Shown one piece after another: positions 27,001-30,000 of a DNA stretch of 64,000 nt (position 1 is its first letter; each line of letters opens with the position of its first letter). Position numbers: made by a program. Origin of the DNA: Escherichia coli O127:H6 str. E2348/69 (lineage in GTDB: Bacteria > Pseudomonadota > Gammaproteobacteria > Enterobacterales > Enterobacteriaceae); NCBI RefSeq assembly GCF_000026545.1, contig NC_011601.1; one strand, written 5' to 3'.

Positions 27001-30000
27001 GGAGAAACAGGTGCGGCTGGCCCGGTGGGGGCAACCGGACCTCAGGGACCAAAGGGCGACCCGGGGGAGACACAAATCCGTTTTCGTCTGGGGCCGGCGA
27101 GCATTATTGAGACAAACAGCAATGGCTGGTTCCCGGGTACAGATGGTGCGCTCATCACCGGACTGACCTTTCTTGACCCCAAAGATGCCACACAGGTTCA
27201 GGGGCTGTTTCAGCATTTGCAGGTCAGGTTTGGTGACGGGCCGTGGCAGGATGTTAAGGGGCTGGATGAAGTGGGCAGTGATACAGGCAGAACAGGAGAA
27301 TGACATGAACGTACTAAAAAAACTTATGCAGCGTCTGTGCGGGTACGGAAAGCATGATGACCGTGAACACGGGGAGTTACTTACAGCACAACTGCGTCTG
27401 GGGCCGGCAGACATCCTGGAGTCAGATGAGAATGGTATTATTCCGGAGCAGGCCAGGGTAATCACGCAGGTGGTGATACTGGATACAGATAAAAAGCAGA
27501 TACAGTGTGTGGTAAGACCGCTGCAAATCCTGCGTGCTGACGGGACGTGGGAAAATATTGGCGGGATGAAGTAACCCGACGGGTTCACAAAAACCGGAGT
27601 CCGGCTCCGGTTTTTGTTGTCATGTCCGGTGGATGTTTGTTATGACTCCCTATATTTCCAGACATCTGTTATCACTTAACCCATTACAAGCCCGCTGCCG
27701 CAGATATTCCCGTGGCGAGCGATAACCCAGCGCACTATGCGGATGCCATTCGTTATAATGCTCGAACGCCTCTGCAAGGTTCTTTGCTGCCGTTAACCCG
27801 TCTGGTTTAGGCATGATACTGATGTAGTCACGCTTTATCGTTTTCACGAAGCTCTCTGCTATGCCGTTACTCTCCGGACTCCGCACCGCCGTGTTCTTCG
27901 GTTCAAGCCCCAACATCCGGGCAAACTGCCGTGTTTCATTAGCCCGGTAGCACGGACCATAACAATTTATAATCTGCTGGCCGGAACTAATGAATTTATT
28001 GGTGAAGGTGACGCATATATTCCGCCTCATACAGGTCTGCCAGCAAACAGTACCGATATTGCACCACCAGATATTCCTGCTGGCTTTGTGGCTGTTTTCA
28101 ACAGTGATGAGGCATCGTGGCATCTCGTTGAAGACCATCGGGGTAAAACGGTTTATGACGTAGCGTCAGGGGACGAGTTATTTATTTCTGAACTCGGTCC
28201 GTTACCGGAAAATGTTACCTGGTTATCGCCGGAAGGGGAGTTTCAGAAGTGGAACGGCACAGCCTGGGTGAAAGATGCAGAAGCAGAAAAACTGTTCCGG
28301 ATCCGGGAGGCGGAAGAAACAAAAAACAACCTGATGCAGGTAGCCAGTGAGCATATTGCGCCACTTCAGGATGCGGTAGATCTGGAAATCGCAACGGAGG
28401 AAGAAAACTCGTTGCTGGAAGCCTGGAAGAAGTATCGGGTGTTGCTGAACCGTGTTGATACATCAACTGCACCTGATATTGAGTGGCCGACTTCACCTGC
28501 AGAGTAATCAACGGCGCAGGGATGATATTTTGTGCTTGAAGTGCCTCCCCGACCATTCAGATAGTCGGGGAGGGGGTATTGGGATTATACGCAATCAGTT
28601 TTAGTAAAAGACCGAAGCTCTCGAAAAATCTTTCTCCAAAACCAGAATGCAATTGATTGATTTTGATAGGATCTATAACGCCGTTACCTTAAACGGCAAA
28701 ACCACTCAAAAACAAACCTAATGTATTGAATATAAAGGATTAATCATCTAATTCGCTCACCTTCTTATTCAGCAGACGAGAAGCGCGCCAGTAAACCAGC
28801 AACATCAGGCCCATTACGATAGTCAGCGTAATGCTGGTGGCTGCACCAAACGGCCAGTCACGAATATTGAGGAACTGTACCTTGATGACGTTACCGATCA
28901 GCAGGTTTTTCGCACCGCCCATCAGGTCGGACACATAGAACAGGCCCATCGCTGGCAGCATCACCAGCAGACATCCGGCAATAATTCCCGGCATCGTTAG
29001 TGGGATAATGATGCGGATAAAGGTCTGCAACTTGCTGGCACCGAGATCGCGCGCCGCCTCAAGCAACGGCTTATCCAGTTTTTCGATACTGGAGTACAGC
29101 GGCATCACCATAAACGGCAGCAGAATGTAAACCAGACCGATAATCACCGCACTAGGCGTGAACATGATGCGAATTGGTGTATCGATAACGCCCAGCCAGA
29201 GCAAAAACTCGTTGAGATAGCCTTTGGTGCTGAGGAAAATTTTCAGCCCGTAAATACGAATCAATGAGTTGGTCCAGAACGGAACAATCAGCAGAAACAG
29301 CAGCAGCGGACGCACCTTGTGTGGCAGCTTCGCCAGAAACCAGGCAAAAGGATAGCCCAGCACCAGGCAGGCGAGGGTGGCGATCAGCGCCATATTCAGC
29401 GAGTGCAATAGCACTTCAAAATAGAGCGGATCGAGCAGACGCGTGTAGTTATCCAGCGTAAAGACCATTTTGACGAAACTGGCGTCGTCGCGGGTCAAAA
29501 AGCTGGTGCCAATGATCATCAGGTTGGGCAGAAAGACAAACAACACAAGCCAACCGACAATAGTGACAATCACTACATTCTGGAACTTACTTGTGTTCTT
29601 CATCAGCCAGTACGACCTCCCAGCTTTCTACCCAATTAATGGCCATTTTTTGGTCGAGAGAGTGGTCAAAGTCAGGATCGTCTTCATTGAAGAATTCGCT
29701 GACCATCACCATCTTGCCATTTTCCAGCTCAACAACCGACTCCAGCGTCATGCCTTTGTAGTTACGCTCGCGAACGTAACCAATCAGCCCTTCGGCGTGG
29801 TTGTCGTCGTTAATCTCTTCAACACGTAAGTCTTCCGGGCGCAGCAGAACATGCAGTTTTTGCCCCGGTTCAACGGCGAAGTTAACGTAGATATTACATT
29901 CGCGGCCTTCAACGTTGGCGCGTACGCGCTGCTCGTCGAGACGTTCGATGACAGTGGCGTTAAACATATTGATTTCGCCAATAAACCCGGCAACAAACAG

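Follow-up and report, generated by a model that had tools for sequence, protein, structure and literature searches.

Junction of a lambda-like prophage with the 3' end of potB in Escherichia coli O127:H6 E2348/69

Genes and features at the locus

The window, by which is meant the whole stretch of 64,000 nucleotides that was analysed, was 100% identical to the E2348/69 chromosome NZ_CP059840.2, in which the position equals 2,882,718 minus the window position x. Its left part belongs to a lambda-like prophage (Table 1) that continues past the left edge of the window, and int, xis and the second att copy are in this outer portion. In the RefSeq annotation the late genes follow each other on the plus strand in the order terminase, portal, deletion, I, J, lom, stf and tfa, and to the left of the late region are placed lysis genes, IS elements, tRNA genes, a replication/immunity region and the genes of an exonuclease, the excisionase and the integrase. 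The prophage is defective, head and tail genes having been deleted and several IS elements being present. Its annotated cargo also includes a Septu defence pair, a nanS-type esterase and iraM genes, and neither stx nor effector genes were present in the RefSeq annotation of the entire 40.8-kb element. An IS remnant cuts the N-terminus of the final gene, tfa, for which RefSeq gives CTG as the start codon. The sole match in an Rfam search of positions 28300–28900 was IS009, within tfa, and the same search found no Rfam family in the att arm or in the stem-loop. In the prophage numbering of E2348/69, PP4 is at E2348C_1040 and PP6 at E2348C_1442 (PMC3891560), and from this gene numbering the prophage at potB/potC is probably PP5; no published name for it was found in the searchable literature.

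On the other side of the junction potB and potA are intact and adjacent, overlapping each other as in other E. coli, and the preliminary description had reported both genes with accurate coordinates. Its central claim, that a prophage junction lies at the 3' end of potB, was borne out by the three-way comparison of junctions, with tfa extending to 28507 and the genome break falling at 28758. The tfa and potB stop codons are separated by 232 bp, and potC is absent downstream of potB within the window. Instead of lying just past a short insertion, potC has its start at a distance of 40.8 kb from potB, some 12 kb to the left of window position 1. Beyond the left prophage end, where it had been proposed that potCD should be sought, both potC and potD were found intact beside int and xis, 166 bp past int, which is co-directional with potC. 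The two halves of the operon, potAB and potCD, have the same orientation. The earlier estimate that the operon was split by at least 28 kb was right but understated, the actual distance in E2348/69 being 40,787 bp.

Table 1. Coordinates of the prophage, attachment-site and pot features in the window.
Feature	Position	Strand	Basis or remark
Lambda-like prophage, defective, right-hand 28.7 kb of 40.8 kb	1..28757	+	RefSeq annotation of the identical E2348/69 region
tfa, tail-fibre assembly gene, final prophage gene	27926..28507	+	Pfam Caudo_TAP (E 5.7e-45); annotation; sequence
Phage att arm, tail side (P arm of attR), 250 bp	28508..28757	.	Contiguous with the int-side arm in attP copies
Stem-loop, 13-bp G+C-rich stem, without U tract	28544..28573	.	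Folding of both strands, z about -3
TTTTGGAGAAA, candidate arm-type integrase site	28631..28641	-	Single exact copy in the 64-kb window
Phage-supplied last five potB codons and stop	28740..28757	-	AGC GAA TTA GAT GAT TAA = SELDD*
potB, 287 aa, intact, chimeric C-terminus	28740..29603	-	Gene call, annotation, comparison with strain HS
att core, 14 bp, TGAATAAGAAGGTG, attR copy	28758..28771	-	Identical copy before potC (L003 24735-24748)
Inferred 7-bp overlap, TGAATAA	28765..28771	-	TR01 polymorphism and lambda layout
potA, intact, stop overlaps potB start	29587..30723	-	Gene call, annotation

Attachment core and phage arms

All junction sequences were read in the pot coding direction. The empty site of strain HS, CTGCTGAATAAaAAGGTGGAACTCGAATGATCGG, is composed of the left flank, the core and the right flank, and in it the tetranucleotide ATGA holds both the start of potC and the stop of potB. 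The potB-side junction in the window reads CTGCTGAATAAGAAGGTGagcgaattagatgattaa and the potC-side junction ccttaTGAATAAGAAGGTGGAACTCGAATGATCGG. The two copies of the core, TGAATAAGAAGGTG, are 40,787 bp apart in E2348/69, and each occurs once in its own sequence. The core encodes the PotB residues N-K-K-V and holds the Shine-Dalgarno sequence of potC (AAGGTG; in its full form AAGGTGG, 7 nt before the ATG), so that potC retains its own translation signals.

In genomes without the insert the match ended exactly at the core edges, both in the three-way comparison with strain HS and in the population searches. When positions 28300–29700 were compared by megablast with 5,426 complete E. coli genomes, E2348/69 gave a 100% full-length match, and most other genomes matched only from 28758 rightwards, which places the break inside potB. 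The tail-side arm was missing from unoccupied genomes and was common to the Stx1a prophage LC744180 and to a relic in phage cdtI. In four IMG/VR contigs the two arms, int-side and tail-side, were joined through the core as in attP; these junctions could derive from free phage or from tandem lysogens, and they are the same recombination product either way. Among the deposited phage genomes no record spanned both arms of the reconstructed attP. The matches consisted of prophage records with host flanks, of the Stx1a prophage in the tail-side arm, and of a relic half-site by cdtA in phage cdtI. Compared with the host sequence that it displaces, the phage arm past the core had 13 of 18 bases equal with one gap, including ATGAT at the position of the potC start.

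The stem-loop in the tail-side arm is situated 36 bp past the tfa stop and 167 bp past the potB stop, and the consensus scan called no terminator there. It may serve as a terminator or as a 3' stabiliser of the potAB message. It is possibly an analogue of lambda tI/sib, since in the free phage its place relative to int is the one that tI/sib has in lambda.

The region is almost certainly an attR, formed when a lambda-like phage was inserted at the potB–potC boundary through site-specific recombination by its integrase, and no evidence against this model was met. The comparison yielded a tyrosine integrase at one end, a core in direct repeat, a matching empty site and joined attP arms, as lambda-type integration predicts. 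In this model the attP of the phage carries the 14-bp host match, made up of the last shared potB codons and the potC ribosome-binding site. Recombination has put potA and potB beside the tail-fibre end of the prophage, where the phage arm provides five substitute codons and a stop for potB (...KKVELE* becoming ...KKVSELDD*), and potC and potD have landed 40.8 kb off, just downstream of int. The duplicated core supplies potC with a Shine-Dalgarno sequence and ATG of its own, and potCD is cut both from the potA promoter and from the ATGA translational coupling to potB.

A split caused without the integrase, by prophage recombination or inversion, by an IS event or by mis-assembly, would leave the prophage abutting potB fortuitously. 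Such events have some precedent, as the O157:H7 prophages at the same site act as break points for large inversions (PMC10925052), and the E2348/69 prophage itself has several IS elements and an internal deletion. They would not, however, be expected to leave, between equally oriented potAB and potCD, exactly one prophage that has int and tfa at opposite ends, is bounded by a 14-bp direct repeat and fits an empty site of left flank, core and right flank, nor do they agree with the existence of a matching attP in IMG/VR contigs and of an identical junction in 1,623 genomes. An origin of this kind is extremely improbable, and the three-way junction comparison effectively refutes it.

Distribution and published occurrences

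The potB–potC junction was uninterrupted in 3,800 of the 5,426 complete E. coli genomes, while the int arm was joined to potC in 1,623 (about 30%), including O157:H7. Essentially all occupied sites thus have this integrase type, and chance is not a plausible explanation for so many genomes with the same phage junction beside so many uninterrupted ones. The tfa–arm–potB junction of the window was also found by megablast in 917 genomes of the set. The integrase is 99% identical to the one beside potC in O157:H7, the excisionase of E2348/69 and O157 has the identical accession, and a nearly identical spacer separates int from potC in E2348/69, in O157 and in a third record.

The preliminary description had named potC as an integration site for lambdoid and Stx phages, and the literature agrees. 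PMC8065619 includes potC among the insertion sites of Stx phages, citing Steyert et al. 2012; potB/potC is the site of the O104:H4 prophage J (PMC3486847), and potC that of the compound 'prophage 5' of O157:H7 (PMC10925052). The deposited prophage Stx1a_EH2115 (LC744180) has the same junction. These published prophages, of O157:H7, O104:H4, LEE-negative STEC and EH2115, are like that of E2348/69 in site, integrase, int-side arm and the re-coded PotB of 287 aa. The O157 prophage differs in having espK, nleL and espN at the potB end. The EH2115 prophage differs in having been deposited as Stx1a-converting, whereas the E2348/69 element has no annotated Shiga-toxin gene and for this reason is not counted among Stx-converting phages.

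The arrangement is already known: it is annotated, it is very common, and the chimeric PotB is a RefSeq protein. With the site named in both the STEC and the EPEC literature, the finding has little weight as a discovery. The exact delineation of the att site (14-bp core, probable 7-bp overlap and candidate binding sites) can be used for occupancy calls in genome surveys. A large share of E. coli, O157:H7 and EPEC among them, has the operon of the main spermidine importer split in two.

Integrase, candidate binding sites and strand exchange

The integrase consists of 372 aa and contains the Pfam domains Arm-DNA-bind_1 (E 4e-21) and Phage_integrase (E 1.5e-18). It aligned over its full length with the lambda Int structures 1z1b, 1z1g and 5j0n (E 4e-54). 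The records 'Lambda_ev' and phage 1H12 were considered as carriers of lambda's own integrase and rejected, the att arm showing a different integrase.

In the O157:H7 strain TR01 the base at core position 8 is G in the potB-side copy of the junction but A in the potC-side copy. With this base as one limit and the GC/TA mismatch left of the core as the other, the exchange would fall within TGAATAA. Strand exchange would therefore most likely take place in these first 7 bp of the core, an assignment drawn from one informative polymorphism and from the analogy with lambda. In variant attP copies the sequence CACCTT-ATGAATAAG-AAGGTG forms a perfect inverted repeat with a 6+9+6 layout. The lambda core, CAGCTT-TTTTATACT-AAGTTG, has the same 6+9+6 layout, the central 7 bp of the spacer being its overlap. 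By this analogy CACCTT and AAGGTG are candidate inverted core-type sites flanking TGAATAA, between which the exchange would occur, and CACCTTNNT is a candidate target of the core-binding domain of Int.

The motif TTTTGGAGARA was present in three tandem copies on the int side, one of them with one mismatch, at 49–83 bp from the core centre, and in one copy on the tail side, about 130 bp away; no other exact copy was found in about 99 kb. It was retained in the otherwise diverged arm of O157. At the corresponding place, phage 1H12, whose integrase is 44.5% identical, has three tandem TTTTGGGGAA repeats. By comparison with such systems, the TTTTGGAGARA repeats are candidate sites that probably bind the arm-binding domain of the integrase. 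With both recombination genes, int and xis, intact and an identical core at either end, Int/Xis-dependent excision of the E2348/69 prophage also appears plausible.

In several respects the system resembles lambda Int and its attP–attB pair. Over its whole length the integrase is homologous to lambda Int, possessing both an arm-binding N-domain and a tyrosine-recombinase catalytic domain, int and xis are found at one end of the prophage and tail-fibre genes at the other, arm repeats stand on either side of the core, and the candidate core-type sites are inverted in the 6+9+6 arrangement generally given for lambda. The differences concern the target and the sequences. Whereas attB of lambda is intergenic between gal and bio, this phage inserts within an operon, where the 3' end of potB meets the ribosome-binding site of potC. 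Core (TGAATAAGAAGGTG) and arm motif (TTTTGGAGARA) likewise differ in sequence from those of lambda, the sites described here being predicted.

C-terminus of PotB

Residues 1–282 of PotB were identical to those of strain HS, and the core ends at codon 282. Past it the native end GAA CTC GAA TGA (ELE*) is replaced by SELDD*, so that the tail changes from ...NKKVELE* (285 aa) to ...NKKVSELDD* (287 aa). The suggestion that the C-terminus of PotB may be re-coded by the attachment core thus held, with one refinement. The C-terminus is indeed re-coded in comparison with strain HS, but the core codes for an unchanged N-K-K-V, and it is the phage arm beside it that contributes the new codons. Junction and reading frame agree with the replacement of a gene 3' end by a phage, as the junction lies inside the potB coding sequence and the phage arm carries the frame to a nearby stop.

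Phages 21 and e14 insert in the 3' end of icd and supply it with a substitute end, and the general rule that phages replace gene 3' ends has reportedly been reviewed by A. Campbell. The potB insertion is like these, as they are commonly described, in that it is in the last codons, that the arm resembles the host sequence, and that a frame of near-equal length is restored. In contrast to icd, where about 50 codons are displaced, only 3 are displaced at potB, and the potB insertion separates genes of one operon, which the icd insertion does not.

Diverged phage arms each gave a PotB of 287 aa, with the tails SELDD, NELDD, SEIGD and (A)TEIDN. The tail NELDD* was found in the Stx1a prophage LC744180, in which the potB-side junction is otherwise shared. 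The O157:H7 strain TR01 and strain OkiPb01676 have diverged arms with an equal breakpoint and the tails ATEIDN* and SEIGD*, respectively. The retention of an open tail of 5–6 codons in four diverged arms could reflect constraint, and this would fit a SELDD tail that alters the function of PotB, for example its stability or its assembly with PotA and PotC. The equal length may, however, simply reflect the common ancestry of the arms. The change is also small, the last 3 residues being replaced and 2 added at a cytoplasmic end, and the acidic character is alike (E-L-E and E-L-D-D). Furthermore, the PDB chain 8y5g_B covers only PotB residues 7–279, which hints that the extreme C-terminus is dispensable for the ordered structure. 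A functional effect of the tail is accordingly quite unlikely, and as far as can be judged from the sequence the SELDD tail would be neutral for PotB.

Transcription of potCD

The promoter of potAB is retained, and the question of expression concerns potCD. A consensus scan for sigma-70 promoters (at least 9 of 12 matches, 16–18 bp spacer) found none between int and potC, and none at either of the junctions; no terminator was predicted between int and potC by the consensus scan. When the scan was relaxed, pattern matching gave a single plausible promoter candidate, TTGCCA-19-TGgGATAAT, which falls within the 3' portion of int, some 340 bp before potC. In some relatives an insert of about 0.9 kb with a hairpin is present between int and the arm, and read-through from int is thus not conserved. 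On whether the insertion alters the expression of potCD or the uptake of spermidine, the literature searched contained nothing relevant.

Probably potCD is still expressed in lysogens, possibly at a reduced level, and its expression would then come from transcription on the phage side. Less likely is a polar effect of the insertion, which would leave the lysogenic potCD promoterless and would shut down the spermidine-preferential uptake by PotABCD in E2348/69 as well as in the roughly 30% of E. coli whose site is occupied. The 40.8 kb that separate potCD from the potA promoter, the stretch between int and potC without a promoter in the consensus scan, and the hairpin-bearing insert of some relatives all point in this direction, and no literature was found on the expression of potCD in such lysogens. 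Stable lysogens of lambda-type phages express int poorly, which likewise favours silence of potCD. On the other hand, the core keeps the Shine-Dalgarno sequence and ATG of potC, no terminator is predicted after int, and the 3' part of int contains the possible extended -10 promoter. Neither do the proteins show any sign of decay: HS, E2348/69 and O157 share one and the same PotC (WP_000580316.1), and PotD is full length in the occupied lineages (E2348/69 and two O157:H7 strains) as well as in the unoccupied HS, an argument that is weak because the time spans are short.

Were the insertion polar, the cells would depend on polyamine synthesis and on other transporters.

The expression of potCD from the phage side may also be taken one step further, in that the att arms could be adapted to keep the split operon working while bringing half of it under the control of the phage. 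In that case PotB would receive a tolerated tail, and the potAB message a stable 3' stem-loop, from the tail-side arm, and potCD would be transcribed from the extended -10 element in the 3' end of int or by read-through from int. Such an adaptation is unlikely. If it were true, about 30% of E. coli would have a polyamine uptake rewired by a prophage, which could respond to prophage induction.

The potC-side junction also creates an in-frame mini-ORF, ATG AAT AAG AAG GTG GAA CTC GAA TGA (MNKKVELE*). Like the potB stop in the native operon, the stop of this ORF overlaps the ATG of potC, and translational coupling could thereby be kept. As a coupling device the mini-ORF was nevertheless rejected, since it has no Shine-Dalgarno sequence upstream and its ATG falls within the core-type site and overlap, and it is probably incidental.

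Decay and insertions in the prophage

The prophage between potB and potC is defective: a truncated S49 head-protease gene stands directly against a truncated NlpC/P60 (K-like) tail gene, and almost all of the head and tail-shaft genes have therefore been deleted. Three further elements, ISEc13, IS200C and an IS481-family element, were found inserted in it. The prophage also bears a Septu anti-phage defence pair, PtuA and PtuB; the neighbours of this pair just beyond the window edge are a second integrase, which is frameshifted, and a DUF5677 gene.

An IS3-family transposase remnant lies between the tail-fibre gene and the tail-fibre assembly gene tfa, and the usual tfa start has been lost through it; in RefSeq the start of tfa is a CTG codon overlapping the remnant. 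The Rfam family IS009 (RF02111) gave a match wholly within the tfa coding sequence (183 bits, E 5e-46), the left extent of which is a lower bound since it reaches the first position searched, 28300. This match may represent conserved coding sequence, not a separate RNA.

Table. Positions of the features (window coordinates unless otherwise stated)
Feature	Position	Strand	Remark
ptuA–ptuB (Septu)	1-1117	+	
ptuA	runs off left edge (position 1)	+	AAA ATPase, PADLOC E 2e-165
ptuB	482-1117	+	HNH nuclease, E 1e-83
IS481-family element	~1372-2460		
ISEc13	~11265-12638		
IS200C	~12776-13234		
S49 protease/NlpC/P60 junction	~20789-21237	+	
IS3-family transposase remnant	27650-27958	-	C-terminus resembles IS2 OrfB
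tfa	27926-28507	+	
Rfam IS009 match	28300-28467	+	
hflD	37120-37767	-	
Mini-ORF MNKKVELE*	24734-24760 of L003		L003, potC-side sequence outside the window
Insert of ~0.9 kb	about 20-900 bp past int stop		IMG/VR L086-L095, L091
Att-arm relic	2500-2690 of NC_009514		phage cdtI

Attachment arms in related phages and before potC

Phage cdtI has retained a relic of the tail-side att arm, including half of the core (AGAAGGTG), the SVLDD*-like stretch and the stem-loop of the arm. As this relic sits between cdtA on one side and tail-fibre-side DNA on the other, it suggests that the cdt genes were acquired beside an old att site of the potB/potC prophage type.

On the int side, some IMG/VR relatives, with integrases 98–99% identical to that of the prophage, have an inserted segment of roughly 0.9 kb that separates int from the att arm. 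This segment, which resembles a moron located at the end of the prophage, holds a strong hairpin (AAAAACCCCGG...CCGGGGTT) together with an ORF on the opposite strand.

On the potC side in E2348/69, the ATG of the mini-ORF MNKKVELE* comes from the int-side arm, in frame with leftover potB codons, and its stop overlaps the potC ATG. The mini-ORF is probably incidental, because no Shine-Dalgarno sequence was found upstream of its ATG and the ATG belongs to the core site.

Annotation of hflD

The hflD gene is flagged as incomplete in RefSeq, but its full-length reading frame is open. As the ORF here begins at a GTG two codons 5' of the usual start region, the flag may reflect an altered start codon rather than truncation.
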